Source: a virus
IMG/VR virus record: IMGVR_UViG_3300024052_000085
Coordinates: 14,759-78,758 of that record
Strand: one strand, 5' to 3'
Length of the DNA stretch: 64,000 bases
The notes beneath the pieces are model-generated. The model did no database searches, was not told the DNA's origin, and saw only the letters and a program-made list of their open reading frames with translations. The translations under genes were made by a program, and so were the position numbers. Of the stretch, positions 2,212-64,000 are shown in pieces (the first letter of the stretch is position 1; every line of letters begins with the position of its first letter).

Positions 2212-2657
2212 TGGCTACATTACAAGCTGGAGTCTATTACGACCATCCTGGATGGTATCGTTTAGTATGTCGTTATGATCCTTGGATGCAAGAAAACTTA
2301 AAAGCAAGTATAGGTTTAGGTAATTATAAATATGACCCTAAACTAAAATTATGGTATGTAAGAGAGCCTTATAGAAAGACTACTGTAGATCTCTTAACTA
2401 GTCATGGCTATACTGTTTCCTTCGAAGGTAAAGAAGAAAATAAGAAGGAACAAAAATCAGGACCTAAGAATGTCTCTTCTGTTAGAGGAGATAATCCTTG
2501 GTCCATTATTTTTGGTCGCTTGCCAGATACTAATCATGGCCAAGAACTACGTGTTAAACTTTATAGGGAAGTTACTAAGATATTACACCCAGATAAAGGA
2601 GGCCATGAAGAAGCTATGAAGGAATTGAATGAAGCCTGGAGTAAATTAAAACCATGA
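2211..2657 (+). CDS. HARP-like N-terminal domain plus minimal J-domain
   Basis: KYDPKLKLWYV; C-terminal LYREVTKILHPDKGG..EAMKELNEAW. Confidence 0.7.
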   Translation: MATLQAGVYYDHPGWYRLVCRYDPWMQENLKASIGLGNYKYDPKLKLWYVREPYRKTTVDLLTSHGYTVSFEGKEENKKEQKSGPKNVSSVRGDNPWSIIFGRLPDTNHGQELRVKLYREVTKILHPDKGGHEEAMKELNEAWSKLKP

Positions 2658-2905
2658 TGAAAAATGATTTAGATGATGACAATAATCAATTTATTTGGTG
2701 GTTAGGAGAACTCGGAGTTTATTTATTAGAATGCTATAAATTCAATCTTATGGACCTTCTCGCAAATCATCCAGAAATAGCTAATAAATCTGCAGAGTTA
2801 ATGAGAGAAGAATTTATGAAGGGTATGGATCCTCATACTTTTGGAGATTCTATAGTACCTAAAGAGTATACTAAAGTAGAAGGTATTAAGGAGAATTATG
2901 CCTGA
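2654..2905 (+). CDS. Hypothetical protein
   Basis: Translationally coupled ORF. Confidence 0.6.
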   Translation: MMKNDLDDDNNQFIWWLGELGVYLLECYKFNLMDLLANHPEIANKSAELMREEFMKGMDPHTFGDSIVPKEYTKVEGIKENYA

Positions 2906-3374
2906 TAAAGAAGAGATTGAACTTGACATAGGTTTTTCCTACTTTGGGGATCCTGATTTAGTTACAGAGTATGAAGGTGGGAGTTCTTTTAACTTACAGC
3001 CTGGATCTCATAAAAAGGTTATAGGTATAGATTTACAAACTGTTCCAGAAGACATTCCAGTAGACCAAATAAAAGCAAGTGCTGATTATCTTCCTATACA
3101 AGATCAAAGTGTTGATTCAGTATTTGCAGGTGGAGTCTTCGGAGCTTATGTTGATCTAGAAGACTCTGTTAAAGAAGCAGATAGAGTCTTAAGGCCTGGA
3201 GGTAAAATGTTCATAAGAACTTGGGGTAGATATATGCCTCGTTTGAAATTACTTCTTAAACGTGGATATTACATAACTGAAATGGGTACTCCAGACTCTA
3301 AGGATCTCTTTCCAGGCGAGAACCCTTTAGACTTTGAATGGCACGTAAGAGCAGTTAAGAGAGGTAAGAGGTAA
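2898..3374 (+). CDS. Class I SAM-dependent methyltransferase-like protein
   Basis: LDIG, VIGID, LPIQDQSVD, EADRVLRPGG. Confidence 0.7.
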   Translation: MPDKEEIELDIGFSYFGDPDLVTEYEGGSSFNLQPGSHKKVIGIDLQTVPEDIPVDQIKASADYLPIQDQSVDSVFAGGVFGAYVDLEDSVKEADRVLRPGGKMFIRTWGRYMPRLKLLLKRGYYITEMGTPDSKDLFPGENPLDFEWHVRAVKRGKR

Positions 3375-3376
3375 CA

Positions 3377-3580
3377 ATGGTAGTTGGAGAGTTTTTTAAA
3401 GAAGGTAACAAACGTATGTTATGGGTGAGATGTCCTATGTGTGAAGAGGAAAGAGGAGCACCTGTAAGGACTAAAGAAGATCTACCTAGTCGTTTGTGTA
3501 AAGTATGTAATTTGAAGAACGCTAAAATTAATATGGAGAGTATATGGAATATTATAAAGAATGATCATACTCAGAGGTAG
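3377..3580 (+). CDS. Zinc-ribbon protein
   Basis: WVRCPMC..ERG...LCKVC. Confidence 0.7.
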   Translation: MVVGEFFKEGNKRMLWVRCPMCEEERGAPVRTKEDLPSRLCKVCNLKNAKINMESIWNIIKNDHTQR

Positions 3581-3640
3581 ATGAGAAAACGTAGGCGTAC
3601 TAGAGGTAATAAACGTTATATTAAATATAAGCGAGGTTAT

Positions 3641-4345
3641 ATGAAAGGATTGGTTTTACATTCAGGAGGATTAGACTCTTCTACGTTACTTGCAGCGGCT
3701 GCAGATGAGTGTGATGAGGTAGTAGGTCTTTCTATTGCATACGGTCAAAAACATCAAGATAGAGAGATTAGAGCAGCGAGGGAAGTTTGTGCTTACTTTA
3801 AAGCAGAGCATCTTGAAATTGAGTTGCCAGATGTCTTCAAAGGCTTTGGTAGTACTCTTATGGATTCTGATAAAGATAATCCGCATCTTACCTATGAAGA
3901 GATCCGCGCTAGCGAAGGTCCTTCTCCTACGTATGTTCCGTTCCGAAATGCGAATCTTCTTTCCATAGCAACAGCAACTGCTCAGATACATAAATGTGAT
4001 ATAGTATACTTTGGAGCTCACTCGGATGATGCTCACAATTATGCTTATCCTGATTGTACTCCTGAATTCATTGGAGCTATGGCAAATGCTATTAGTGTTG
4101 GAACGTATTATACTGTACGGTTGAAAACTCCTATTATGTGGATGACTAAAGGTCAAGTTACTGAATGGGGTCAAAGTTTAGGAGTTCCCTTTGCAATGAC
4201 TTATTCTTGTTACGAAGGTACTGAGATACACTGTGGAGAATGTCCTACCTGTGTTTCAAGACAAGTAGCGTTTGAGGAGGCAGGCATTGACGATCCCACA
4301 GAATATACCGGAGGAGCCCAACGCGAAAAAGCCATTCACGGTTAG
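3641..4345 (+). CDS. queC: 7-cyano-7-deazaguanine synthase QueC
   Basis: SGGLDS, YGQKH, TYVPFRN, YPDC, SCY...HCGECPTC; RBS before ATG 3641. Confidence 0.95.
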   Translation: MKGLVLHSGGLDSSTLLAAAADECDEVVGLSIAYGQKHQDREIRAAREVCAYFKAEHLEIELPDVFKGFGSTLMDSDKDNPHLTYEEIRASEGPSPTYVPFRNANLLSIATATAQIHKCDIVYFGAHSDDAHNYAYPDCTPEFIGAMANAISVGTYYTVRLKTPIMWMTKGQVTEWGQSLGVPFAMTYSCYEGTEIHCGECPTCVSRQVAFEEAGIDDPTEYTGGAQREKAIHG

Positions 4346-4493
4346 TCTAAGTATCTCTTATAGTGTTCCAAGACGCTACTCCAGAATACAAGCTGAAAGT
4401 AAAGAACAAGCTTTAGAAATTGCTCTAGAACAGTTACAAAAAGATACTTGGGGAGTACAGGATGTTAAAGTAATGTCAGTTGAAGAGGGTTAA
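4272..4493 (+). CDS. Small hypothetical protein
   Basis: IQAESKEQALEIA phage-type motif; start uncertain. Confidence 0.5.
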   Translation: MRRQALTIPQNIPEEPNAKKPFTVSLSISYSVPRRYSRIQAESKEQALEIALEQLQKDTWGVQDVKVMSVEEG

Positions 4494-5196
4494 TGTGGTA
4501 GACGCTTTAGATATTAAGAAAATAGAAGTTACGGAGATCTTTAGTTCTCTTCAAGGAGAGGGTAAGAGATGTGGAGTTCCTGCAACCTTTGTAAGATTAA
4601 GAAGATGTAATCTAGCTTGCATATGGTGCGATCAAAAAGAGACTTGGGATGTAAACGATCCTGGGTATAACAATTATGAACTTAAGCATATATCTGAAAT
4701 AAGACAACAGATATTAGACTACAATAATAGACTATTAGTTATTACAGGAGGTGAACCTCTACTTTGGCAAAGAGAGCTAAGATATTTAATTGACTCAATG
4801 CCAAGTGAGATTAGTATAGAGATAGAATCTAACGGAACTATAGATCCAAGTTTTCTAAAGTTGACTAGGACTGAATTTAATATTTCACCTAAGATGTCTA
4901 ACTCTGGAAACGGTGAAAGAAATACTAAAGTACATGACGAATACCTCGATCTATTTAAACTTAGAAGGGTCGTATTTAAGTTTGTAGTTAAGACAGCTAG
5001 TGATTTTGAAGAGGTAGATAGGTTTGTAGCTAATTATAATTTAAATCCTAAAGGTATTTATGTTATGCCTGAAGGAGTTGACCGAGAAACCATTTGCACT
5101 AGACTTCCAATCCTCTTCGATTATTGTAATGAGAGAGGATATAATTTAACTACTAGATTACACGTTCTAGCCTTTGGAGATATGAAAGGAGTTTAA
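4480..5196 (+). CDS. queE: 7-carboxy-7-deazaguanine synthase QueE (radical SAM)
   Basis: EIFSSLQGEG, CNLACIWCD, ITGGEPL, ESNG, ISPK, RLH. Confidence 0.95.
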   Translation: MKRVNVVDALDIKKIEVTEIFSSLQGEGKRCGVPATFVRLRRCNLACIWCDQKETWDVNDPGYNNYELKHISEIRQQILDYNNRLLVITGGEPLLWQRELRYLIDSMPSEISIEIESNGTIDPSFLKLTRTEFNISPKMSNSGNGERNTKVHDEYLDLFKLRRVVFKFVVKTASDFEEVDRFVANYNLNPKGIYVMPEGVDRETICTRLPILFDYCNERGYNLTTRLHVLAFGDMKGV

Positions 5197-5388
5197 ATGC
5201 TAAGATCAACCATGATTACATGTTGCTATAAAGTATGTGGTAAAAACCATGGTTCTTCCCTAGGGTTACACTTTGATACTGATATTAAAGAAGTGTATTG
5301 TAACGTAAAGTGTTATGTAGAAGACTATTTCCTGAAACATACAGGAAGACAAGGCGAAATTATAGAAACTGATAGAGGGTATAATTAA
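5197..5388 (+). CDS. Small zinc-finger protein
   Basis: C....C...YCNVKC. Confidence 0.55.
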   Translation: MLRSTMITCCYKVCGKNHGSSLGLHFDTDIKEVYCNVKCYVEDYFLKHTGRQGEIIETDRGYN

Positions 5389-6065
5389 TGGTAGAGCAGA
5401 CTAACGAAGATCCAAGAGTAGTTGGAGGAGACTTTACAGAGATTGTAAAATCAAGAAATAAAGGAGTTGAAGAAGATATTAATTATGGAGATAAAGAGAG
5501 AGGTAAAGATTTAGAAGACGCAGCTAAGTTAATAATCAAAGCTCTAGGCGAAGATATAAATGCAGAAGGACTATCTGAGACTCCAAGACGTTTCAGAGAA
5601 ATGTTTATGGAGGATTTCTGGCCTGGAGATTCTTTAGATACTGTTCTAGGTGAAATGGTAATGGAAGAAAGCTTTGACCAAATGGTTATAGTTAAAGATA
5701 TCCCAATCCGTTCACATTGCGAACATCACATATTACCTTGGTGGGGTAAGGTTTGTTTAGGTTATATTCCTCATGCTAAAACTGTTGGGTTAAGTAAAAT
5801 GACTAGAATGGTTGATGCAGCAGGTAAAGGACTAACTATTCAAGAGAGAGTAACTGATAGTATTGCTCAGAGTATGAATAGAGTTCTAGATCCTAAAGGT
5901 GTAATGATAGTAGTTGAAGCAGTTCATATGTGTACTCTAATGAGAGGAGTAAAAACTGAAATGCAAAGATTTACTACCAGCACGGCTAAAGGAGTATTCT
6001 TAACTAATTCAGCACCTAGACAAGAGTTTCTAACCTTGTTTGCTAAAAATGGAAGTTTGATTTAA
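5388..6065 (+). CDS. folE: GTP cyclohydrolase I
   Basis: GLSETPRR, SHCEHHILP, GLSK, IQER, HMCTLMRG. Confidence 0.95.
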   Translation: MVEQTNEDPRVVGGDFTEIVKSRNKGVEEDINYGDKERGKDLEDAAKLIIKALGEDINAEGLSETPRRFREMFMEDFWPGDSLDTVLGEMVMEESFDQMVIVKDIPIRSHCEHHILPWWGKVCLGYIPHAKTVGLSKMTRMVDAAGKGLTIQERVTDSIAQSMNRVLDPKGVMIVVEAVHMCTLMRGVKTEMQRFTTSTAKGVFLTNSAPRQEFLTLFAKNGSLI

Positions 6066-6078
6066 TTTCTTCTCTAGC

Positions 6079-6197
6079 TTTGCTAGAGAGGTACTGTTGA
6101 TCGGGAAACCGGCATGAGGATCACCTCCCTCAAACTACCTCCCGTCACGTGTGGGGCCGGCTGTAATCGTGGTTATCAACAGTACCTCTCTAGTAAA
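6079..6197 (+). ncRNA. Putative structured RNA with anti-Shine-Dalgarno loop
   Basis: 19-bp perfect stem 6083-6101/6175-6193; inner CCGGC/GCCGG and TGAGG/CCTCA helices; contains GGATCACCTCC. Confidence 0.6.
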
Positions 6198-6213
6198 TAT
6201 AAAGGAGAAATAA

Positions 6214-6417
6214 ATGTTAACAACATTCGAAGAATTGCAAGTCTATCTTAGATCAGAACATCCATCAAGTCATAGTGTAGGGCCTTGTGTACTGTGTAGT
6301 GAAACAACTTCTGATAGATGTATTAGATGTAAAAAGTATTTCTGCGGAACTCATGTAGGACGTAAAGACTGTATCACCCCTAGAGATCTGTATGCAAATA
6401 AAATTGAAGATCGTTAA
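6214..6417 (+). CDS. Small Cys/His zinc-finger protein
   Basis: CxxC..CxxC...FCGTH...C; AAGGAG RBS. Confidence 0.65.
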   Translation: MLTTFEELQVYLRSEHPSSHSVGPCVLCSETTSDRCIRCKKYFCGTHVGRKDCITPRDLYANKIEDR

Positions 6418-6431
6418 GGAAGAGTTAAAGG

Positions 6432-7511
6432 ATGCTTATAGAGAGTTTACACGGAGAATCTCAATGGACCAGAAGTCCAATGACCAACGGAAATATAAGA
6501 ATGTCAATGACAGAAAACTGTCCTAGACAACAAGTGTATGTCGCTTTGGGGATAGAACAAGACTATCCTGAGACTGGAAGATCTCAAATGGCTGCTGATG
6601 ATGGTAATCTACATGAAGCTGATGTAGTAAATAGATTCTTAGCAGCTGGTTATCGTTGTTGGAATTACGGTGAAGACCAAGCTATGGTGCATTTTGAAAG
6701 GGATGGTGTACGCTTTAGAGGACATCCTGATTTATTCATGGAAACTCCCGAAGGTGAAGTAATAGGAGTAGAACTCAAAGGTTATAGAGATGAAACCTTT
6801 AGACAGTTCGTTCAAGGAGCTGTACAGACAGTTCCAGGAATGTGGTCTGTTTCAGATTGGTCTAAACTAACTAAGAGACCTTATCCTTTAATGGGTCAAT
6901 TACAAATGTATCTTCATTCTGATACTTCTACTAGTTATGGAATAGATAAATGGGTTCTAGTTATGAAGAATAAAAACACTGCAGAGCTAGCTGAGTGTAT
7001 TATTACTAAAGATGACGATTATATTAATAGACTAATAAGAAAGTGGAAAGGTTTCTGGGCTTATATTGAAGCTGGAAGACTTCCAGATAGATTCTTTGGA
7101 GATGATAGCATAGAATGTCGAAGATGTCTGTTTCGTCAAAAGTGTTGGAATCTTGGTGAAGTATTTACTTCAAAAGAGGATGTAGTTCACGTTAAAGGTT
7201 TAGAGAAGTTTGCTTCTATGCGAAGAGAAGGAAGTCTTTTAAAGAAGGATGCTGAAGGCCTATTAGAAGAATCTAGAATGGCTTTTCTAACTGAACATAT
7301 TAATAAAGAAGCTACTAGGATAGAGTGTGACGGTCTTACAAGTACTGTAAGCGAAAGAAATAGAAGAGGTTTAGATAGTACAGAAGTAAATAAGGTTCTG
7401 GCCTATATGCTAGAAAAAGGTAATATTGACGATCAACAATATGATGATTGTTTTAATGATGTAAGTTATCAGGAGGTTAGATTTAAAGATGTTAAACCCC
7501 GAGATGCCTGA
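6432..7511 (+). CDS. Cas4-like PD-(D/E)xK exonuclease
   Basis: CPR, GNLHE, GHPD, ELK, QLQMY, CRRCLFRQKC. Confidence 0.85.
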   Translation: MLIESLHGESQWTRSPMTNGNIRMSMTENCPRQQVYVALGIEQDYPETGRSQMAADDGNLHEADVVNRFLAAGYRCWNYGEDQAMVHFERDGVRFRGHPDLFMETPEGEVIGVELKGYRDETFRQFVQGAVQTVPGMWSVSDWSKLTKRPYPLMGQLQMYLHSDTSTSYGIDKWVLVMKNKNTAELAECIITKDDDYINRLIRKWKGFWAYIEAGRLPDRFFGDDSIECRRCLFRQKCWNLGEVFTSKEDVVHVKGLEKFASMRREGSLLKKDAEGLLEESRMAFLTEHINKEATRIECDGLTSTVSERNRRGLDSTEVNKVLAYMLEKGNIDDQQYDDCFNDVSYQEVRFKDVKPRDA

Positions 7512-7869
7512 TACTAAGTCTATGAACTTTGAAGAATTGGTAGAGTATCGTAAAGGTATTGGTTATAATGTTTATGGAGTAGAATTAAGTTATGGCGTGA
7601 TTGTAGATAGTGCTTACTATAAAGATGTTACATGGGAATGCATAGAAGAATTAGCAGACGCTTTTGTATATTTAGACTTTGAAAGAGAAAAGTTGATAAA
7701 CAGATCTTCTAAAGTAAATGTAAGAAGGATAGAATCTATTCAGAATAGAGTTAAAGACTGCGTAGTATTTATAAACAATTATAGAGACCTAATTAAAGAA
7801 AAATTTCCAGAACTTTTGGAGGATACATTACAAGATGAAATTCGCACCGGTACTGTCAGAGAAGTATGA
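7504..7869 (+). CDS. MazG-superfamily-like nucleotide pyrophosphohydrolase
   Basis: RKGIG..VYG...EELADAFVY (EExxD motif). Confidence 0.5.
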   Translation: MPDTKSMNFEELVEYRKGIGYNVYGVELSYGVIVDSAYYKDVTWECIEELADAFVYLDFEREKLINRSSKVNVRRIESIQNRVKDCVVFINNYRDLIKEKFPELLEDTLQDEIRTGTVREV

Positions 7870-8620
7870 TCCAGCTAAATATTCCAATTATCATTTAGTA
7901 TTGGCAAATGAAGTTATTAGTGATAACAGTTACGCTAATTATTATAGCTCACTCGCTATCGACCATACTATTATTCTAGATAGCGGAACTGTCGAAATAG
8001 GTTATGCAGATTCTGAAATGATATTTGCAGCAGTAGAGAAATTAAATAGAGAAGTTATTGTAGTTGCTCCAGATTTCTTAGGAGATAAAGATCGTACAAT
8101 ATTAGAGACTGAAGACTTTCTAAGTCAGGATGGATGTCCTGGCAAAGATAATGTAATGATAGTACCTCAAGGTGAAACTCCTGAAGAGTGGATTGAATGT
8201 TTTGATTACTTAGATCTTAATTACAATGAAAAGTTTAAGTGGGTTGGGATCCCTAGGATATCAGAAGACTTTCCAGGAGGTAGAAGTTGGTTGTATCAAA
8301 ATGTAATGCAGATACACCGTAGGAGGAGGAGTATGAATGATCAACCTAAAATTCATCTTTTGGGACTACAACATACTTTAGATGAGATAGAATGGGCAAA
8401 ACATTTCAGTTCTAGAATTGTAGGTGTTGATAGCAGTGCTCCTCTTAAAGCCGCAGAAATTAACGTTTTATGTTCTGAAGTTGTAGACTTTAGATTACTT
8501 ACAGATATAAATGTAAATCCTTCAGAGGATTTAGTAGCCGAAAGAATACAAGAAATGGTTGAATATACTTCTTTCAGATGGAGTGTTAAAACTCAGGGAG
8601 AATTAATAAATGGAGCCTAA
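7835..8620 (+). CDS. dpdA: DpdA-like deazaguanine DNA transglycosylase (TGT fold)
   Basis: ILDSG, APD, VPQG, VGIP, IHLLG, GVDSS; que gene context. Confidence 0.7.
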   Translation: MKFAPVLSEKYDPAKYSNYHLVLANEVISDNSYANYYSSLAIDHTIILDSGTVEIGYADSEMIFAAVEKLNREVIVVAPDFLGDKDRTILETEDFLSQDGCPGKDNVMIVPQGETPEEWIECFDYLDLNYNEKFKWVGIPRISEDFPGGRSWLYQNVMQIHRRRRSMNDQPKIHLLGLQHTLDEIEWAKHFSSRIVGVDSSAPLKAAEINVLCSEVVDFRLLTDINVNPSEDLVAERIQEMVEYTSFRWSVKTQGELINGA

Positions 8621-11054
8621 ATATCCTGGATGTAATTGCGAAGAGTGTCCTTTAAAAGATGAAGGTTTTGTTCCACCTAGCGGACCTGAAGATTCTGATA
8701 TCTTATTTATAGGACAAGCTCCTGCATATTACGAAGTTAGGAGTGGTAAACCCTTCTCAGGACCTTCAGGTAGTGTACTCGATGGTTCTCTAGAGAGTGT
8801 AGGATTACGTCGAGAAGACGTAAGAACAGATAATAGTGTACTTTGCTTTAATGCAGCAGGTTCAGGAGATCCTTCAATAGCTGCAGTAAGAGCATGTAAT
8901 GGGCACATTAAAGAGGCTTTAAGTAAATCTAAATATGTTGTACCTATGGGCAATAGTGCTTTAACTGCTATCTTTGATAAAGAAGTTGAAGGAATAACTC
9001 AATATGCTAATACACTATTCAGGCATAACGATAATATTATTCTTCCGCTAATACATCCAGCATTTTATCTTAGACAGTCAGGTGAAATGTTTAGAGACTT
9101 TTTAGAGGGTATGGCTCTACTCAAAGATCAAATAGACGGAGGTACTCTTTGGAATGACTTAGACTTTAAGTTTACAGTATTTAGGACTGTAGATGAAGTG
9201 ATTCCTTTTCTAGAGAACCTCAGAGATAATCCTCCAGAGACTCTTGCAGTTGACTTAGAAACAGATTTCCCAGATCCCGTAAGAGGTGTTATAACAGGTG
9301 TTTCGCTTTGTAGTAGATATGATGAGGCTTTTATTATTCCTTGGGACTCTAACTATTTGGAAAGTCACGGAAGCGATATTGAACCGCTTTTGGAATATCA
9401 AAACGTCTTCGACTTGCTCAAAGAAGCTTTAGAAGCTCAAGATGGAGTAGTAATGCATAATGCTCCTTTCGATGCAAGACTATTACGTCGAGAGGGTATA
9501 AATATTAGAGTCAGAGATGACAGTCTTTTAATGCATTATGCTTTAGATGAAAGAGCAACATCTCAAGGATTAAAGAAAGTTGCTAAAGTAATGTTAGGTA
9601 TTCAAGATTGGGAATCTGATCTTAAACAATACTTACCTAATAAGGCCGCTCCGTATACTATGATACCTCCTGAAGTATTATATCCTTATGCTGCTAGGGA
9701 TGCATGCTATACTTTAGTCTTGAGAGATTTACTTAGGAAACGTTTAGATGCTCCGGGAAACGAAGGTCCGTCATCTTTATACGAAAATATCTTAACTCCT
9801 TGTAACGAACTACTAATGGCTCTTAGTTTAGAAGGCGTGTCTATGGATTCGCAAATTCTTGTAGACGCTATGACTGAGATGCCTGCTAAGCTTACAGAGC
9901 TAGAAAAAGAATTAGAAGAGTTGTCAGGAGATAGATGGTTTAATCCTAGAAGCCCTAAACAGATTTCTGAAGTTATGTTTGGAAAACTTGGATTGAGACA
10001 GATTAATGGAACTAGTACAAATAAAGAAGTATTAGAACAGCTCTCTGGAGAACATGCTTTTGTAGATACTCTTATAGAGTATAGACAGTATCTAAAAGTA
10101 TCTTCTACCTATATGGAAAACTTTGCTAAGAGTTACCAAAATGGTAAAGGTTATCCAGATCTAAGATTATTTGGAACTGTTACAGGAAGGTTAAGTGGTA
10201 GTAAACTTAATCCTCTTACAATGCCTAGAGAGAGTAGAGGTGATTTATATCGTTCTATAAAGAATGTATTTATAGCAGATCCAGATTGTTTCTTATGGGC
10301 TTCAGATTACAGAGCTGCTGAATTAAGAGTTATGGCTGTATTAGCAAACGATGATTGGTTAATAGAACAATTAAGTAGTCCTGATATAGATTTTCACTCT
10401 ATAATGGCTGAACAAATATTCGGCGAAGAATTTATGGGTGCGGATAAATCCAGACAGAAGGAACTTCGAGTTATAGCAAAGATGTTCGTCTTTGGTCTTA
10501 ACTATGGAAGAGAAGCTCCCTCAATAGCTAAACAGTTAGGTTGCGGCATTAATGAAGCTACTGATTTAATAGCAAAATATTTTAAACCAATGCCTAACGT
10601 ATTAGCATGGCGTAAAGAAATGGAACGTACAGCTGTTGAAGATGAATATCTAGAGAATCCTTTTGGAAGACGAAGACGCTTTTCTTTAATAACAAAAGAT
10701 AATATTCATGATATAAAGAAGCAAGCTATTAACTCTCCAGTACAAGCTACAGCTAATGATCTTAACTTACTAACTATGGAAAGGATTAGAAGAGAGCTTG
10801 GACCTGAAGTAAGAACATTATGGCCAGTACATGATAGTATACTAATGAATGTTAAGGAGACAGTACCTAACGAAACACTATATGATCTAAGAGATATACT
10901 GTTTAAATATCCCAGTGAATTACTAAAGACAAGACTTCCTTTCTTTATTGATATCGCAGTAGGATATGCTTGGGGAACCTTAAAAGAAGTTAATGAAATT
11001 GAAGAGATTAAGGGTGCTTTAGCTCAACTCACACCTAGCAACTCAGCATCATAG
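8610..11054 (+). CDS. Family A DNA polymerase with N-terminal family 4 uracil-DNA glycosylase and 3'-5' exonuclease domains
   Basis: CEECPL, IGQAP, PFSGPSG, HPA; DLET, HNAPFD, YAARD; TGRLS, DYRAAELR, RVIAKMFVFGLNYG, PVHDS. Confidence 0.95.
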   Translation: MEPKYPGCNCEECPLKDEGFVPPSGPEDSDILFIGQAPAYYEVRSGKPFSGPSGSVLDGSLESVGLRREDVRTDNSVLCFNAAGSGDPSIAAVRACNGHIKEALSKSKYVVPMGNSALTAIFDKEVEGITQYANTLFRHNDNIILPLIHPAFYLRQSGEMFRDFLEGMALLKDQIDGGTLWNDLDFKFTVFRTVDEVIPFLENLRDNPPETLAVDLETDFPDPVRGVITGVSLCSRYDEAFIIPWDSNYLESHGSDIEPLLEYQNVFDLLKEALEAQDGVVMHNAPFDARLLRREGINIRVRDDSLLMHYALDERATSQGLKKVAKVMLGIQDWESDLKQYLPNKAAPYTMIPPEVLYPYAARDACYTLVLRDLLRKRLDAPGNEGPSSLYENILTPCNELLMALSLEGVSMDSQILVDAMTEMPAKLTELEKELEELSGDRWFNPRSPKQISEVMFGKLGLRQINGTSTNKEVLEQLSGEHAFVDTLIEYRQYLKVSSTYMENFAKSYQNGKGYPDLRLFGTVTGRLSGSKLNPLTMPRESRGDLYRSIKNVFIADPDCFLWASDYRAAELRVMAVLANDDWLIEQLSSPDIDFHSIMAEQIFGEEFMGADKSRQKELRVIAKMFVFGLNYGREAPSIAKQLGCGINEATDLIAKYFKPMPNVLAWRKEMERTAVEDEYLENPFGRRRRFSLITKDNIHDIKKQAINSPVQATANDLNLLTMERIRRELGPEVRTLWPVHDSILMNVKETVPNETLYDLRDILFKYPSELLKTRLPFFIDIAVGYAWGTLKEVNEIEEIKGALAQLTPSNSAS

Positions 11055-57999: not shown

Positions 58000-59961
58000 A
58001 TGAAAAAGATTATATACGGATTTTACGTTCTGTGGTTAGGTCTACAGGTAAAGACAATAAGAAAGAAAGACCTAAACTTTCAAATGAAGTTTCTACAATC
58101 TGCAATGAAATATACTTCAATGATGCTCATTCTGATTTTTGCATTAGCAGCTTGTACAAATCCTGGAAGTGCATTAACAGTTGGTGATGGTTCAGAAAGC
58201 TCAGAAGAAAAATCAGTACACACTCCAGGTAATTGGAAATCAGGACTTTTTACACCTACACCAGAACCTACTATTACAACAGAAAATTCTCCCGTAACTG
58301 TAAGCAGTCCTGCAAGAGTACAGGAAGGATTAACTTTAATAAATTACAATTTTGAATATCCAGACCTTTCTTGTGCTCATGCTGCGTGTCCCGGTACTAG
58401 CGCTAAAGAATTTACGTCATTAACAACGAGCCAATTTCCAGGTTGGGATGTTTCTAAAGGATCTATAACAATATATGCACAGCCAGGAGTAGTAGGTCAA
58501 TGGGCTCAGATACAGAATGGCGAAATAACTCAAAACATAGGAGTAAGAAAGCTATCTAAATATAAAGTAAATATTAATAAAGCTGTAGGTACCTCATGTA
58601 ACATTCCTGGAGAAATTATTTTAAAATGGGGAGAACAAGAGCCTAGAGCAATTGCAGTAAGTGGAGTAGACTGGACTAAATTAGAAACTACTTATGATAA
58701 CCAACAAGAAGAAAAGATAACTTTTGGAATAGAAGCAATAAATACTCAATGTCCCATACTTATTAAAGATATATCCATAGTACTAATAGGAGATGTAGAA
58801 CCTATTAAAGAAAAGACTCAAGCTGAGATTTTAGACGATAACTTTTTAATACCAAATGGAGACTTCGAAAGTCCTGAAGTATTAAATCCTAAGAGATTAG
58901 CATCTCTACCTAATTGGGCTTTAAATTCAGAGCCCGAAAAATTTCCCGTAATAGTTAGAGAAGGAGATAATCAATATATAAAATTATACGGTCCTATAGG
59001 TCAAGACTTAGAATCAGTCTCAGGCTCAGTTTATAACCTATCTATAACCATCAGAAAACCAAATTCAGAAGGATCTAACTGTAAGGTAGTATATTCTATA
59101 AACGAAATAGAGAACCGTCTAGAAGACGACGTAACAACCATAGAGTCAGAATCTATAAACTGGGAAATTAGAAATCAAGTAATAGAAATAGATTCAGGAA
59201 CTTCATCGTTATCTTTAGAATCTCAACCTGGTTTCTTCTGCGATATAGATAACGTAAAATTCACTTACCTAAGAGATATTAATAATCAAATAGTAGTACC
59301 TACTCCAGTACCCGAAGCAACAGGTCAAGATACTACATCTATTCTACCTACTCCTACTCCCACTCCTACTCCCACTCCAGCTCCCCAAGTTCAGGTAACT
59401 ATAACTCCTACACCTACACCCGTTCCTCAAGTAACTATAACACCCACCCCTTCTTCCAAATATCAAACTGAAGGAAGTAACTTAGTAACCGAAACCAAAA
59501 TGACCTTTAGTACAGGCCCTACAGTATACTCAGGAAAAGTCAACTTTACAGGAACGGTATTAAATAAAGTAGAACCTACAATGATTCAAGTGTGGGCCTT
59601 ATCCGGAGACAGTGGAGCTATGATATCTGATACTACTTATAAACCTGAAGAATGTAGTACCGAGAAACCCATAACTTTCTTCAGAAAATCATTAGCTACA
59701 GGAAGTGTTTACAGTAATACTTCAATAGAAGTAGATTGGAATTATTGCATTAATGGATCAACAACTACATCTAAACTTACAGTACCTTATCAGAATGCAA
59801 CTACTTGGACGTATAATACAACTAGTGGAGTCTTTACATTTGAGGGGGATAAAACTGTGGGGCTTACAAACGAATGGCCTTCACAACCAGGAACTAGCTC
59901 TTATGTAATCACAGTTCTTGATTCTGAAGGCCTCGTTATAAGAACTGAGGAAGTCAGATAG
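58000..59961 (+). CDS. Lipoprotein with carbohydrate-binding-like domains and PT linker
   Basis: Lipobox LAAC; two N.(N/D)FE.P..W domains; PTPTPTP repeat. Confidence 0.7.
   Translation: MKKIIYGFYVLWLGLQVKTIRKKDLNFQMKFLQSAMKYTSMMLILIFALAACTNPGSALTVGDGSESSEEKSVHTPGNWKSGLFTPTPEPTITTENSPVTVSSPARVQEGLTLINYNFEYPDLSCAHAACPGTSAKEFTSLTTSQFPGWDVSKGSITIYAQPGVVGQWAQIQNGEITQNIGVRKLSKYKVNINKAVGTSCNIPGEIILKWGEQEPRAIAVSGVDWTKLETTYDNQQEEKITFGIEAINTQCPILIKDISIVLIGDVEPIKEKTQAEILDDNFLIPNGDFESPEVLNPKRLASLPNWALNSEPEKFPVIVREGDNQYIKLYGPIGQDLESVSGSVYNLSITIRKPNSEGSNCKVVYSINEIENRLEDDVTTIESESINWEIRNQVIEIDSGTSSLSLESQPGFFCDIDNVKFTYLRDINNQIVVPTPVPEATGQDTTSILPTPTPTPTPTPAPQVQVTITPTPTPVPQVTITPTPSSKYQTEGSNLVTETKMTFSTGPTVYSGKVNFTGTVLNKVEPTMIQVWALSGDSGAMISDTTYKPEECSTEKPITFFRKSLATGSVYSNTSIEVDWNYCINGSTTTSKLTVPYQNATTWTYNTTSGVFTFEGDKTVGLTNEWPSQPGTSSYVITVLDSEGLVIRTEEVR
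59346..59450 (+). repeat. Pro-Thr coding low-complexity repeat
   Basis: CCTACT/CCCACT units; PQVTITPTP-like unit twice. Confidence 0.8.
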
Positions 59962-59982
59962 TTTATTGCTTAATGAGTGCTC

Positions 59983-60444
59983 TCATTTATTATTCTCTTT
60001 AAGGAGTTTTAAAACCCTGATTGTTTCTTGCGATCTAACACCAATATTACGTACTCCAAAGTATCTTCCAAAACAGCTTCTACCGCAGAAGATAAAAGTT
60101 TGACCCCTCCTCAGATTGGTAGCATGTAACTTCTCTCTTCTTTTAAAGTCATTATCACAGCTCATACATTTAAGATAAATATATTTAGAAGCTGCATAGC
60201 ACTCTCTAGAACAGAACCTTCTATTTCGCCTACTATAACTAGTGCATTCTGTTTTACAGTACTCACAAATTAGAGGAGGGATAACTCCTACTTTAGAAGG
60301 AAGACCTATTTTATTTAAGATCTGACGTACTGCCTCTCTAGTAATACCTATTTCTCTTGCTATGCTTGCAGCTTTCATTTCAGGATAACGTCTACGTAAA
60401 AGAACAACTTGCCATTGTCTATCTGTATAATCCTGATCTAACAT
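59983..60444 (-). CDS. HTH plus zinc-finger protein
   Basis: SIAREIGITREAVRQIL; CEYC..FCSREC; CMSC..FCGRSC. Confidence 0.8.
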   Translation of the reverse strand: MLDQDYTDRQWQVVLLRRRYPEMKAASIAREIGITREAVRQILNKIGLPSKVGVIPPLICEYCKTECTSYSRRNRRFCSRECYAASKYIYLKCMSCDNDFKRREKLHATNLRRGQTFIFCGRSCFGRYFGVRNIGVRSQETIRVLKLLKENNK

Positions 60445-60453
60445 TTAAAACTC

Positions 60454-60669
60454 CTAACTTTCTGATTCCTCACCTGGATCAATAGTTGTCATTATGGTAA
60501 CTTTATTGTCACAACGATAACAGATATAAAAATCTCCTACTTCACCAATATACCCTTGAGCAGAAAAGGGTCCTCCGCTTCTCTTCATTACAATAGGAGC
60601 ATTATCAGTTTCAGGATTATAACACTTTTCACAGCAAACTTCAAATCTTATTGCAACTGAATAGTTCAT
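60454..60669 (-). CDS. Small zinc-ribbon protein
   Basis: CEKC...CYRC; GGAGG RBS. Confidence 0.65.
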   Translation of the reverse strand: MNYSVAIRFEVCCEKCYNPETDNAPIVMKRSGGPFSAQGYIGEVGDFYICYRCDNKVTIMTTIDPGEESES

Positions 60670-60672
60670 ACA

Positions 60673-60849
60673 TTAACCTCCTTCTTGCAACTTTTTAAGT
60701 TCTTCTTTGATATCGGGATACTTTTCTAAAGCTTCAGCTAATATAGATTGAGCATCTTCCTCACATCCTTGACAGTCAAAACCAATAACAGTACCTAAGA
60801 CTTCCATTCCATTTTTTTCATGAACACACTTAACACTTTGTTCGGACAT
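60673..60849 (-). CDS. Small protein (58 aa, not in the ORF track)
   Basis: GGAGGT RBS; MSEQSVKCVH...DCQGCEEDA... Confidence 0.6.
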   Translation of the reverse strand: MSEQSVKCVHEKNGMEVLGTVIGFDCQGCEEDAQSILAEALEKYPDIKEELKKLQEGG

Positions 60850-60850
60850 A

Positions 60851-61042
60851 TTAACCTCCTTCTATTTCAGACTGTAGATCCTTCACAACTCTACGAGATA
60901 AATGAGTCTTACAACACGCAGTTAGAACTATATTTCCGTAGTTCCATCTAGTATTACATTTTATATTACATCCGGGAAATATGCATAGCCTCAAATCTCC
61001 TTCAACATCTATAAACTTGGTAATCTCATTTACATTAGGCAT
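60851..61042 (-). CDS. Small Cys-rich protein
   Basis: CIFPGC...CCKTH. Confidence 0.6.
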   Translation of the reverse strand: MPNVNEITKFIDVEGDLRLCIFPGCNIKCNTRWNYGNIVLTACCKTHLSRRVVKDLQSEIEGG

Positions 61043-61175
61043 ACGTTCTATTCACTTTCCTTATATGAACGCTAAGACATTTAGGACATCTTTCCTCGCA
61101 AAGAGAACAGTATGTCATACTACAATCAGCACAAGTACCGACCTTCTCGATATGAGGTTTAATTCCTGCTTTCAT
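61035..61175 (-). CDS. Small zinc-finger protein (46 aa, not in the ORF track)
   Basis: MKAGIKPHIEKVGTCADCSMTYCSLCEERCPKC... Confidence 0.55.
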   Translation of the reverse strand: MKAGIKPHIEKVGTCADCSMTYCSLCEERCPKCLSVHIRKVNRTYA

Positions 61176-61269
61176 TTAATCATCTCCCTCTAAACCAAAT
61201 ATTTTATTATTTCTACGTTAATACGCAGATCAGGAGAGCTATTCACACTAGCTCCCCGACATCTACCTA

Positions 61270-61623
61270 TTAATATTCTGCGGAGGGGTAAGCCTTCCAA
61301 TAATTACCTTCTGGAAGAAACTCTCTCCAACCTGAATATACAGCGTTTAAATTATCACCGTTAATTCCGGGAATAGAAGTATTAGGACCCACTTCATCTT
61401 CCTCGTTCCTACCTAACGCGCAAGACAAACAAGAACGATGATATACATTATTTTCTGTATCTTCGTGTTGTAAAACTCCGTCGACATCGCGAACAACTTT
61501 CAGTAATTGGATTTCAATAACTAGACTTCCCACATCCAATACATTACCGCAAGACCAACATTCATCAGGAACTATTTCTGTTTCGGTTGTCAAGATACTA
61601 CTCCTTAGATTTACACTAATCAT
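61270..61623 (-). CDS. Zinc-finger protein
   Basis: CWSC...HRSC. Confidence 0.6.
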   Translation of the reverse strand: MISVNLRSSILTTETEIVPDECWSCGNVLDVGSLVIEIQLLKVVRDVDGVLQHEDTENNVYHRSCLSCALGRNEEDEVGPNTSIPGINGDNLNAVYSGWREFLPEGNYWKAYPSAEY

Positions 61624-61924
61624 TAAAGACCCTAGTCAGAATTTCGTTTTTGTAATCCATATAATCTACGTATACAATACGAGTATCGAGATCACAACGA
61701 ATATTTACCATACCTCCTAAATCACATTTCTTAGGCCATTCTCCGGGTTTCCACCCCAAGACACTAGCCTCTTTATGCTGGTCTACTTGATCTACAGTAA
61801 ACGTACAAAAACCATCTTTAATTTCTGTCGCCATTAACCACCTCTTTATCTTCTGGATTTTTAATAAATATACACGGATCTTCGCATCGAATACAGAACC
61901 CCGAAGGTCCTCCAAACTTAACAC
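61616..61924 (-). CDS. Hypothetical protein
   Basis: EASVLGWKPGEWP; start probably at the internal ATG (MATEIK). Confidence 0.55.
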   Translation of the reverse strand: MLSLEDLRGSVFDAKIRVYLLKIQKIKRWLMATEIKDGFCTFTVDQVDQHKEASVLGWKPGEWPKKCDLGGMVNIRCDLDTRIVYVDYMDYKNEILTRVFND

Positions 61925-61990
61925 TACTCATATCTAACTCACCATAAGGTTCTGCATAACAGCATTCAGATAACCATTCAGTTTGCTCCA

Positions 61991-62392
61991 TTAAGAATTT
62001 CCTAGTTCATTTGAAGCATCCCAAATTCGATCTTGTTCATCTTCATCCATATCTATATTTACTGAATTCATCCAACGAGAAGGATTATGCTCGATCATCA
62101 TTGGAACTACCATTAAGTTTCTTACATTCGATTTACATAGATCCGATAACTTAACAGTAGTTTCCCAACGAAGAGCATTGTCCATCTTTCCAAATGCTTC
62201 TTCAATTTCCGGCATTCCAACCTTGAAAGAACAGCAACCATTTTCGCACCACATTAACAGATCATTTTCACGATGAGAATCAGTTATGCTTCCTTTTTCT
62301 TCTAAATAACATAAAGGACATCCATCTTCACATTCAATTTTTCTATTGTCAGGGAAAAACATTTCCATTAGTACAGTTCTCCTTCTATCCAA
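61991..62392 (-). CDS. Cys-containing hypothetical protein
   Basis: CPLC...CENGC. Confidence 0.6.
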   Translation of the reverse strand: MDRRRTVLMEMFFPDNRKIECEDGCPLCYLEEKGSITDSHRENDLLMWCENGCCSFKVGMPEIEEAFGKMDNALRWETTVKLSDLCKSNVRNLMVVPMMIEHNPSRWMNSVNIDMDEDEQDRIWDASNELGNS

Positions 62393-62919
62393 GATCGACG
62401 ATCTAAAACTATCGGACGTATTGACATCAGGTGAAAGTAAGCTTGATCCATAGTCATTCCATGAATATCTTCTAAATACTTAGCAATAACTAAAGCGCTT
62501 CGTTCCATACCCATTCTACAATTAACAGATACGTTAATACCATCTCGAACTCTTTGATCAATTTCTCCAACCGCTTTATCTATCGCAAGCATAGAAATCA
62601 TACTATACGGTTGAATATTGAACTCTAAATCCGCATTTAATTTTCCTTCAAACTCTCCTGCAGTATTGATTATAAACATACCCTTTTCATGAGCTTCTTC
62701 AACACCGTCGAAAGCTGTAAGATATACCTCTCCGACTCTAGAACAATCCTGATAAGCGGCCCAAACATTATTGTTTGAAACTAAACTCAAAGTCTTCGGA
62801 TCGAACTCCTTAACATCTCTCAACTGTTGAAAGATTTTCGAATCTTCAGATAAGTCTTCAATCAGAGCATATAGAATTTCCGTAGATGGTACTTCCGAGT
62901 GATAAGTCTCATTATACAT
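62368..62919 (-). CDS. Dual-specificity (CX5R) protein phosphatase
   Basis: VNCRMGMERS...YL...GMT..QA......RP. Confidence 0.85.
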   Translation of the reverse strand: MYNETYHSEVPSTEILYALIEDLSEDSKIFQQLRDVKEFDPKTLSLVSNNNVWAAYQDCSRVGEVYLTAFDGVEEAHEKGMFIINTAGEFEGKLNADLEFNIQPYSMISMLAIDKAVGEIDQRVRDGINVSVNCRMGMERSALVIAKYLEDIHGMTMDQAYFHLMSIRPIVLDRRSWIEGELY

Positions 62920-63418
62920 TTGAAGGAATCCTATTAGCTAAATCATCACGCAGATACAACTCTCCTTGAGTATCAAAGAGTCCTTCTGGTTCTGAAGCTA
63001 TGAAATCTGCTAACTCTCCAAATTCAATACCTGCATCATTAAGATCTATTAAACTAGCTTCACCCTCTATAAGGTTCTTAATAGAGCTACTGAAATAAGT
63101 TCCCGCTTGACTAGCTAAACCCAACCATTGAGCTACTTCCCTAGGTAAAATAGATTCTTGGATATCTTCGTCTTTACCGTTATCCATATAACCTACTAGT
63201 TTACCATCGGTACCTTCTAATGTAAAAGGAGTACCCCACCTATCACTTTTTCCTTCACTTATTAGAAACTTATTATAGATATCGCATGCTACACCTAAAC
63301 AACAATAAGTAACTTGAGTACCTTTAGGATCCTCAAATACTTTAGACAGTGCTCCAGTAGTCTGAATATATTTCCCAGACTGTAAAGCTTTAACCCAAAC
63401 TTCAGCGTTCTTATTCAT
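62912..63418 (-). CDS. Phage hypothetical protein
   Basis: WVKALQSGKY.Q...CCLGVACD...LNDAG..F..LAD.I. Confidence 0.75.
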   Translation of the reverse strand: MNKNAEVWVKALQSGKYIQTTGALSKVFEDPKGTQVTYCCLGVACDIYNKFLISEGKSDRWGTPFTLEGTDGKLVGYMDNGKDEDIQESILPREVAQWLGLASQAGTYFSSSIKNLIEGEASLIDLNDAGIEFGELADFIASEPEGLFDTQGELYLRDDLANRIPSNV

Positions 63419-63648
63419 TATAACGGTACTCCAGTATGTCGTATTCCATCTACCACTAAAGTAATTCCTTTATCTAGATCTAATGCTCCATTCCATTGAG
63501 GAGATCCTATACGTTGACAGTAATACATTCGTTTAGAGAAACATTGTTGACAGATCCAATTGATCCCTACGCCCTTGCTAACGTACTGACACAAATAGAA
63601 TTTCTTCGCTCCCTCATGCCCACACATTATCGGAATTCCTTTAATCAA
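63418..63648 (-). CDS. Small Cys-containing protein
   Basis: Coupled ORF. Confidence 0.55.
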   Translation of the reverse strand: MIKGIPIMCGHEGAKKFYLCQYVSKGVGINWICQQCFSKRMYYCQRIGSPQWNGALDLDKGITLVVDGIRHTGVPL

Positions 63649-63836
63649 GATATATACCCCTTATTTCGATAATCTTCATAACGATTTAACAATGCTCGAA
63701 CCTGTTTCGCATTCTTAATCGGTACTCCAAGAACCAGAGATATTTTCTCTCTATTTCGAACTCTGTCTTCCGTTAACGTTAAATGATCGTTCAAATCCCA
63801 TACGTGATGTTTATATTTCCATTTCGACGGTTTCAC
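63645..63836 (-). CDS. Hypothetical protein
   Basis: GAGGTGA RBS, GTG start. Confidence 0.55.
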   Translation of the reverse strand: MKPSKWKYKHHVWDLNDHLTLTEDRVRNREKISLVLGVPIKNAKQVRALLNRYEDYRNKGYIS

Positions 63837-64000
63837 TTAGTAATCACCTCTAACTACCTTTAACTTTTCCATTACCTAGATAATGATCCCTCCCTCCTCC
63901 CTATCTTCATTAGCTAGATACCTTAAACATCTTGAGATCCGGGACCTGTTTATTCTTAATTTGACTCAAGAAAGCCACAGCCTCGTCTCTCGTGATTTGC

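Follow-up and report, generated by a model that had tools for sequence, protein, structure and literature searches.

The prohead RNA (pRNA) of phage phi29 is closed by a long helix between its 5' and 3' ends that leads into a three-way junction, and the internal loop of its first arm is complementary to the hairpin loop of its second arm. The interlocking loops and the three-way junction of this RNA have been described (PMC5340915). Stem P6 of the OLE RNA is a functional mimic of the anti-Shine-Dalgarno (anti-SD) sequence set within a structured RNA, and it binds bS21 (PMC12054373). Phage RNAs have also been catalogued, with 10,006 candidates, 8,495 of them unnamed, from the same database as the virus record analyzed in this work (PMC10690425). 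Here we describe an RNA element encoded by record IMGVR_UViG_3300024052_000085, a linear virus record of 78.7 kb with an estimated completeness of about 55%. The window, that is, the whole stretch of 64,000 nt that was analyzed, comprises bases 14759 to 78758 of the record, and all positions refer to it unless a homologous locus is named. The element (6079 to 6197, plus strand) lies in a 148-nt intergenic gap (6066 to 6213) with folE upstream and an open reading frame (ORF) for a 67-aa Cys-rich protein downstream. An earlier note, made from the letters of the window, had read it as a structured RNA that mimics the 3' end of 16S rRNA.

A plus-strand pseudoknotted RNA family in uncultured phages

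The element is a real, discrete plus-strand RNA with a pseudoknot, and its family is conserved in a small number of uncultured phages. Seven homologs came from a scan based on folE and from scans with core patterns; together with the window they make eight sequences from two lineages. L004 came from viral contigs, L009 to L013 from metagenome contigs, and L014 was found through the core pattern. The RNA follows folE in the window, in L004 and in L009 to L013, and L014 alone has a different gene context. A covariance model built from seven of the sequences was used to realign all eight, and 42 base pairs were counted. Standard pairs fill 99.4% of the pair cells, and compensatory double changes occur in 17 of the 42 pairs, a number reached by none of 500 shuffles. 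When the registers were slid by 1 to 3 columns, the paired share dropped to between 37 and 56%.

Five helices (P1, P2, P3, P4 and the pseudoknot) are compatible with all eight sequences, and four of them covary. P1 measures 23 bp in six loci, 24 to 28 bp with two mismatches in L013 and 15 bp in L014, where the helix is perfect and has only its three innermost pairs in common with the window. The 5' strand of P3 and its partner appear as UGAGG/CCUCA, UAGGG/CCCUA or CUGGG/CCCAG. In P4, A-U is replaced by G-C in L010 (compensatory) and one U-G by U-A. The covarying pairs of the pseudoknot (CCGGC/GCCGG) change in four sequences, from C-G to U-A in three and from G-C to U-A in one. The four pairs of P2 (CGGG/CCCG) are the same in all eight sequences, so that covariation cannot test them; any further tertiary pairs, invariant in this alignment as P2 is, would likewise lie outside the covariation test. 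RNAalifold recovered P1 to P4 independently.

The energy of the fold points in the same direction. The gap at 6066 to 6213 has a fold energy of -65 kcal/mol (z = -8.3), a stability that none of 200 shuffles matched. The P1 stem is also the top-ranked inverted repeat of the whole window, with 19 perfect pairs (6083 to 6101 with 6175 to 6193) that reach 23 bp (6079 to 6101 with 6175 to 6197) through G6082-U6194 and three U-A pairs. The structural part of the earlier note is thus borne out. The GC-rich island (51% GC, against 35 to 39% for the window) and the 19-bp stem extendable to 23 bp are present in the sequence where the note placed them, the RNA is genuinely structured by covariation and by a fold energy beyond that of shuffles, and the closing stem, the CCGGC/GCCGG helix and the UGAGG/CCUCA hairpin are each backed by covariation. 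The searches against Rfam that it had proposed matched no known RNA class.

The overall fold is a long closing helix, P1 (15 to 28 bp), that opens into an almost linker-free three-way junction (linkers of 0, 0 and 2 nt) carrying two arms and a pseudoknot. The first arm consists of P2, an internal loop and the P3 hairpin, the second is P4 with its 18-nt loop, and the 5-bp pseudoknot forms between the P4 loop and the internal loop of the first arm (Table 1). At window positions 6161 to 6167, the P4 loop reads CUGUAAU (CCGUAAU in L004), 7 nt that are not closed by a stem. We take this heptamer to resemble the anticodon loop of tRNA-Tyr, with the UGU element recognized by tRNA-guanine transglycosylases (TGT), and genes that are probably DpdA-like, a type related to TGT, lie nearby.

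Three other arrangements were considered and rejected. A local CGG-GAAA-CCG tetraloop hairpin, suggested by an alignment to the Luteovirus BTE, is broken in L013, and the same bases covary with the distant GCCGG. Pairing of GAGG with the CCUC of the loop, which would form an SD/anti-SD duplex inside P3, was discarded as well, since the variable 5' strand of P3 covaries with the distal CCYNR and not with the invariant loop. A double pseudoknot like that of the hepatitis delta virus (HDV) ribozyme does not fit the helix order.

We assigned the RNA to the plus strand because of its many G-U pairs, which on the opposite strand would be C-A mismatches, and because of the model scores (94 to 146 bits on the plus strand versus 31 to 39 on the minus strand). 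Every frame contains stops in seven of the eight sequences, the only open frames of L014 are in a different register, and the P3 loop indels (1 to 3 nt) are not multiples of three. Therefore, neither a 45-codon plus-strand ORF (6114 to 6251) nor the minus-strand mini-ORF is a conserved gene. The latter, a 10-codon frame that the earlier note had offered as an alternative, is contradicted by the plus-only G-U pairs, by the low minus-strand scores and by the P1 that would bear it, which is entirely different in L014. An SD-led ORF of 41 codons crosses the element in L014, in a frame unlike that of the 45-codon ORF of the window. The element occurs once in the 78.7-kb record and once in each of two other virus records; being single copy in each, it is not a miniature inverted-repeat transposable element (MITE), a possibility that the note had itself raised.

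The conservation of the core stands out against the divergence of the phages. Among the seven folE-linked copies, the core (72 to 75 nt between the P1 arms) is 83 to 95% identical, about as much as the adjacent folE coding DNA. The core of L014 is still 88 to 93% identical to that of the window clade (74 nt), with FolE, QueC and the exonuclease only 28, 35 and 23% identical between L014 and the window. Differences are confined to the P3 loop and to covarying pairs, and about 60 core positions never change. The stretch 6134 to 6144 is identical in every sequence including L014, and just before it only A6133 varies (G in L013, deleted in L009). Either nearly every nucleotide of the core is constrained or the core has moved between phages, and the rewritten P1 of L014 argues against a recent transfer of the whole module. 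Conservation of this order is normally found in the aptamers of riboswitches, in the cores of ribozymes or in RNAs that bind to universal machinery of the cell. The core may therefore recognize a partner that does not evolve, either a universal machine of the host or a small molecule. Provided that the structure is right, the element represents a new family of compact pseudoknotted RNAs, with a 74-nt core that stays nearly unchanged where the proteins retain 23 to 35% identity.

Searches for known families and for further copies gave little. No model of Rfam 15 (4,227 models) matched the whole window at gathering thresholds. At E of ≤10 with permissive filters on positions 5900 to 6400, the sole match on the element was the Luteovirus BTE (RF00434), below threshold (19.2 bits versus a gathering score of 45, E = 0.12), a resemblance that we judged to be due to chance. 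At that same cutoff there was no match to preQ1 riboswitches I to III, THF-II (the folE motif) or other known riboswitch classes, to hammerhead, twister, twister-sister, pistol, hatchet, HDV-like or hairpin ribozymes, or to int-alpA (RF02996), and by inspection the helix order is unlike the nested double pseudoknot of HDV or the hammerhead core. Two core patterns found no copy in one genome each of 185,579 prokaryotic species. The element is absent from cultured phages, among which there was no DNA relative and FolE relatives were all <60% identical. In viral contigs, exact GAGGATCACCTCCCTCA gave only chance matches inside coding regions (L005 to L007), and three further core patterns found only L004/L008, L014 and L021, the last a chance match in a coding region.

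More distant relatives found through the exonuclease, with 38 to 45% identity in this protein (L016 to L018), have no gap for the RNA and no match to the model. In L017 (2417 to 4077) folE abuts the exonuclease gene, and in L018 (2026 to 3735) and L016 (1574 to 4068) one or two small genes lie between them. Its absence from these relatives gives the RNA, alone or together with the zinc-ribbon ORF, the look of an insertion at the folE-exonuclease junction, and it is therefore an accessory insert of a narrow clade. It is new relative to Rfam, although it may equal one of the unnamed entries of the published phage catalogue (PMC10690425). It may also prove to be just another orphan among the thousands of phage RNA motifs that have been predicted.

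Anti-SD-like motifs in the core

The claim that the element mimics the 16S rRNA tail stands only in part. GGATCACCTCC is found at 6118 to 6128 and TACCTCCC at 6136 to 6143, and CCUCC is kept at both sites in all homologs, so that the loss of this motif, which would have spoken against the mimic, did not appear. However, the extended match GGAUCACCUCC, an 11-mer with a chance expectation of 0.003 copies on each strand of the window, is found in only one of the eight sequences, that of the window. Its equivalents in the homologs are GGU-CACCUCC, GGUCCACCUCC, GGAACGCCUCC, GGA-CACCUCC and GGA--ACCUCC, with P3 loops reading U-CACCUC, UCCACCUC, AACGCCUCC, A-CACCUC and A--ACCUC, i.e., the A, U and C that precede CACC are variable or missing. 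CCUC(C) itself is retained in the L3 loop of all eight despite length variation of 1 to 3 nt, and L3 is predicted to be unpaired in all folds. The second motif, ACCUCCC, is invariant in the eight sequences (AACUACCUCCCG), and its last four bases form P2, so that this CCUCCC is partly inside a helix. Judged on sequence, two ACCUCC motifs of the anti-SD type are kept by the RNA without its being a copy of the 16S tail, and the full match is a lineage-specific coincidence on top of a conserved CCUCC.

Each downstream SD can pair with the loop by 4 to 6 bp, which proves nothing, because any SD pairs with any anti-SD-like sequence. GGAGG occurs 80 times on the plus strand of the window (about 37 expected) and CCTCC 32 times, a strong strand asymmetry; CACCTCC is found once on this strand, inside the element. 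In L014 (10254 to 10290, minus strand), CUCACCUCCU, a 9-nt match to the 16S tail, is located just upstream of P1. Its predicted pairing partners are an AAGGGAG close by and the GGGGG SD of the downstream gene. A resemblance to the 16S decoding site (CCCGUCAC) was dismissed, since such an 8-mer is expected by chance and the small-subunit rRNA model gave no match.

Genomic setting and candidate functions

Nearly all genes of the window are on the plus strand. Positions 2898 to 11054 hold a 7-deazaguanine DNA-modification block interleaved with replication and repair genes, in the order methyltransferase, queC, queE-like gene, folE, the RNA, Cas4/RecE-like exonuclease, 261-aa protein and family A polymerase fused to an N-terminal UDG-superfamily domain. 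The 261-aa protein, for which neither Pfam nor PDB gave a sequence match, has a homolog of 277 aa (E = 7e-8) in the que cluster of L014 and is probably DpdA-like. In L014, a 156-aa gene of no assigned function lies upstream of the RNA, and downstream come a small CxxC protein, a UvrD-like helicase, queC, folE, a DpdA-like gene, queF, a Cas4-like exonuclease, queD and queE. Both arrangements thus have que genes, a DpdA-like gene and a Cas4-like exonuclease downstream of or adjacent to the RNA. A scan for tRNA and tmRNA found neither. Near 58 to 60 kb, the GC skew flips from positive to strongly negative (-0.31; region about 58000 to 64000), which suggests a change of gene orientation or a replication-related boundary.

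Table 1. Features of the RNA element and of its surroundings in the window
Feature	Position	Strand	Evidence or remark
queC	3581-4345	–	Upstream of folE
queE-like radical-SAM gene	4480-5196	–	Upstream of folE
folE (GTP cyclohydrolase I)	5388-6065	+	Pfam PF01227, E = 2.7e-55; precedes the RNA in 7/8 loci
folE stop codon	6063-6065	+	13 nt 5' of P1
Pyrimidine-rich 5' flank UUUCUUCUCUA	6066-6076	+	Predicted to pair with the downstream SD region as outer extension of P1 (minimum free energy, MFE)
P1 5' arm, 23 nt, 19 perfectly paired	6079-6101	+	Double (compensatory) changes in 11 of the 23 pairs counted; 98.9% of cells pair
P2 5' strand CGGG	6102-6105	+	Pairs with CCCG 6141-6144; invariant in 8/8; predicted by RNAalifold
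Pseudoknot 5' strand CCGGC (internal loop of first arm)	6109-6113	+	Pairs with GCCGG 6156-6160; 2/5 pairs covary
P3 hairpin	6115-6132	+	UGAGG (6115-6119) pairs with CCUCA (6128-6132); 3/5 pairs covary
Loop L3 AUCACCUC	6120-6127	+	Carries conserved CCUCC together with C6128
AACUACCU, then P2 3' strand CCCG	6133-6144	+	Near-invariant in the eight sequences; includes second ACCUCC
P4 hairpin	6145-6172	+	UCACG (6145-6149) pairs with CGUGG (6168-6172); one compensatory pair
Loop L4, 18 nt	Between P4 strands	+	Holds pseudoknot 3' strand GCCGG (6156-6160)
P1 3' arm	6175-6197	+	Top inverted repeat; covariation
SD region AAAGGAGAAA and ATG (6214) of next cistron	6201-6216	+	Starts 4 nt after P1; predicted paired
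67-aa Cys-rich (zinc-ribbon-like) ORF	6214-6417	+	Directly downstream; not a fixed partner of the RNA
Cas4-like/RecE-like exonuclease	6432-7511	+	PHROG 1990 and 434; first conserved downstream gene; directly follows the RNA in L013
Family A DNA polymerase, N-terminal UDG domain	8610-11054	–	Downstream of the exonuclease

The RNA is always co-directional with the genes, and P1 ends 4 to 30 nt before the SD or start region in all eight loci. The next gene is the 67-aa zinc-ribbon ORF in the window, L004, L009 and L012, a tiny ORF in L010 and L011, the exonuclease itself in L013 and an unrelated 57-aa CxxC protein in L014. The tiny ORF (L010, 1131 to 1175; L011, 2262 to 2306) has its SD and ATG in the same position and overlaps, in another frame, the start of the exonuclease; it may be either what a deletion left behind or an upstream ORF that serves coupling. 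In each of the eight loci, the MFE fold pairs the SD with bases immediately 5' of P1, and in ensemble folds of the window clade, the unpaired probability of its nucleotides is about 0. The predicted partner includes the last folE codons and the stop in L013 and is a CACCUCCU stretch in L014. Compared with shuffled flanks, this duplex reached p = 0.03 in the window, 0.004 in L012 and 0.006 in L014. P1 of L014 is followed by UUCUUUUUUGUUU, a U-run that looks terminator-like by eye; in the window, UAAAUAUAAAGG follows P1, and there was no intrinsic-terminator call in 2500 to 9000.

These features lead us to favor, tentatively and at somewhat less than even chances, a module that would act in cis as a gate on a polycistronic mRNA ahead of nuclease, replication and 7-deazaguanine genes. 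P1 would juxtapose the end of the upstream cistron with the site where ribosomes bind for the next gene. An outer helix (6066 to 6073 with 6203 to 6210 in the window) would then bury the SD in the window clade, and in L014 P1 and the U-run could act like a terminator. The output would be P1 with the outer helix or the U-run, and sensing or docking would fall to the knotted core with its two ACCUCC motifs. Its partner would be equally invariant, a small molecule or a host machine (ribosome, RNA polymerase or RNase), whose binding would set whether the gate is closed. Two output designs on one conserved core are the usual pattern of riboswitches and attenuators. The place of the RNA beside 7-deazaguanine and replication genes in two gene orders, and its two anti-SD-like motifs, suggest two ideas: a new sensor tied to the metabolism of modified bases, or a phage RNA directed at the system of ribosome-binding sites. 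Either would extend the known repertoire of phage gene control.

Several observations weigh against such a gate. The switching helices of known riboswitches are much shorter and less stable than P1, which makes a thermodynamic switch difficult to envisage, and the loci share no conserved alternative fold. A 10-bp hairpin (6069 to 6078 with 6082 to 6091; CUUCUCUAGC/GCUAGAGAGG, loop UUU), which results from a 7-nt direct repeat, TCTCTAG, at 6071 to 6077 and 6187 to 6193, is in competition with both the SD-burying helix and the outer third of P1. Its significance against shuffles (p < 0.01) is limited to the window clade, and the hairpin is absent from L013 and L014. The energy of the flank duplex was not significant in the other five loci, and any pyrimidine tract will pair with an SD. 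Moreover, the RNA comes after queC-queE-folE in seven of the eight loci and lies upstream of que genes only in L014, and since there are folE-exonuclease relatives without it, it must be dispensable for that pathway.

An unlikely but credible alternative to the gate is that RNase III-type processing of P1 frees an RNA of ~80 to 100 nt, whose ACCUCC motifs would mimic the anti-SD, either by pairing in trans with ribosome-binding sites of the GGAGG type or as a decoy for a protein that recognizes the anti-SD region, such as bS21. P1 falls in the length class of RNase III substrates. Its sequence provides the about two turns of uninterrupted double-stranded RNA that this enzyme requires, the cleavage itself being a prediction, and it has been kept at 23 to 28 perfect or near-perfect bp in seven of eight loci through compensatory changes, beyond what closing a junction needs. 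The retention of CCUCC in the predicted unpaired L3 of all eight sequences despite the indels, together with the invariant second ACCUCCC, also fits this alternative, for which P6 of OLE, with its binding of bS21, is a precedent (PMC12054373). On the other side, the extended identity to the 16S tail is found in one of the eight sequences, four of the six bases of the second ACCUCC are in or next to P2, the virus record has no bS21 gene, and P1 is only 15 bp long in L014. Stoichiometric masking of SD sequences would require a very abundant RNA, and a sigma-70 promoter scan found no plus-strand site near the element and a total of sites not above shuffle expectation. An elaborate pseudoknotted core would also be superfluous for simple base-pairing. 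The specific form in which the RNA excised through P1 holds its two ACCUCC motifs in a fixed geometry that imitates the 16S anti-SD, and so targets host translation by soaking up SD-led mRNAs or an anti-SD-binding protein such as bS21, is distinctly unlikely. Under it, the core would be frozen because its target is universally conserved, and mimicry of such a target does fit the near invariance of the core.

It is rather unlikely that the element is a processing module, either a new self-cleaving ribozyme or a dedicated site for RNase III or another RNase, whose cut between folE and the replication genes would give the two parts of the operon transcript unequal stabilities. Small ribozymes are common in phage intergenic regions. 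The compact double-helical core with its pseudoknot and many invariant nucleotides, the intergenic position in a co-directional operon and the long double-stranded P1 would all suit such a role. Yet no known ribozyme or other Rfam family accounts for it at E of ≤10, about 60 invariant core positions exceed what known small ribozymes need, and nothing points to a cleavage site.

Self-assembly like that of pRNA, with the CCGGC and GCCGG loops pairing between molecules so that a ring or multimer scaffolds a phage machine, is improbable. The topology and strand order do match those of the phi29 RNA, covariation cannot separate intramolecular from intermolecular pairing and is equally compatible with the latter, and the nearly linker-free junction may disfavor side-by-side arms. 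Nevertheless, the Rfam pRNA model (RF00044) gave no match, the arms are only 4 to 5 bp long with 6-to-7-nt linkers, which makes an intramolecular knot sterically plausible, and pRNAs are poorly conserved in sequence as opposed to the nearly invariant core found here. The RNA also sits in the replication block, away from packaging genes, and the family A polymerase indicates that the phage is not phi29-like.

A function outside RNA (DNA palindrome, MITE-like insert, plain terminator hairpin or short coding frame) is largely refuted, since the insertion-like absence from distant relatives where folE abuts the exonuclease, the direct repeat flanking the element in the window clade and the U-run after P1 in L014 are outweighed by its single copy in three virus records and absence from the 185,579 species genomes, by the many G-U pairs and the covariation of internal helices and pseudoknot, by the want of a U-run or terminator call in the window and by stops in every frame of most homologs, with loop indels that are not multiples of three.

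Comparison with known RNAs

The likeness to the Luteovirus BTE consists of a long closing helix and a GAUC..GGGAAAC..GG stretch that resembles the 17-nt box of the BTE, which is a eukaryotic plant-virus element binding eIF4G. Closer to the biology of phages, the stems cut by RNase III in T7 early mRNA and in rRNA precursors are, as here, long and double stranded, and a flanking stem of this type could excise the RNA that it encloses. The T7 sites, however, are simple interrupted hairpins without a conserved knotted core. RNAIII of Staphylococcus aureus and RsaE/RoxS carry unpaired C-rich loops complementary to GGAGG-type ribosome-binding sites, as are the motifs of the element, but these are simple hairpins in free-standing small RNAs with their own promoter and terminator, whereas the element is pseudoknotted and located between cistrons.

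In its architecture, the element resembles phi29 pRNA (RF00044), also phage encoded, in the long 5'/3' helix, in the three-way junction and in the complementarity between the internal loop of the first arm and the hairpin loop of the second, in identical 5'-to-3' order. It differs in having no sequence or model similarity, much shorter arms and a nearly invariant core where pRNAs vary widely, and it belongs to another type of phage, with an estimated genome well above the size of phi29, and to another genomic location. With P6 of OLE RNA, it shares a conserved CCUCC(U)-type sequence, that of the 16S anti-SD, inside a large structured RNA (PMC12054373). The mimic of OLE, a 600-nt bacterial RNA, is a duplex with an SD-like strand (PMC12054373), unlike the CCUCC found here in a hairpin loop and a junction strand, and no bS21 gene is found in this virus record.

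Three-way-junction riboswitches differ from the element in that their P1 has 4 to 8 bp and not 15 to 28, and in that the element matches none of their models, has a junction nearly without unpaired nucleotides and no conserved alternative fold, makes its tertiary contact with an internal loop as one partner, and lies mostly downstream of biosynthetic genes. On the other hand, as in the purine riboswitch (RF00167) and the THF-I aptamers, P1 closes a three-way junction whose arms are tied together by tertiary base-pairing, and the element shares with such aptamers a highly conserved core, covarying helices and a location, on the strand of the mRNA, directly ahead of an SD or a U-run.

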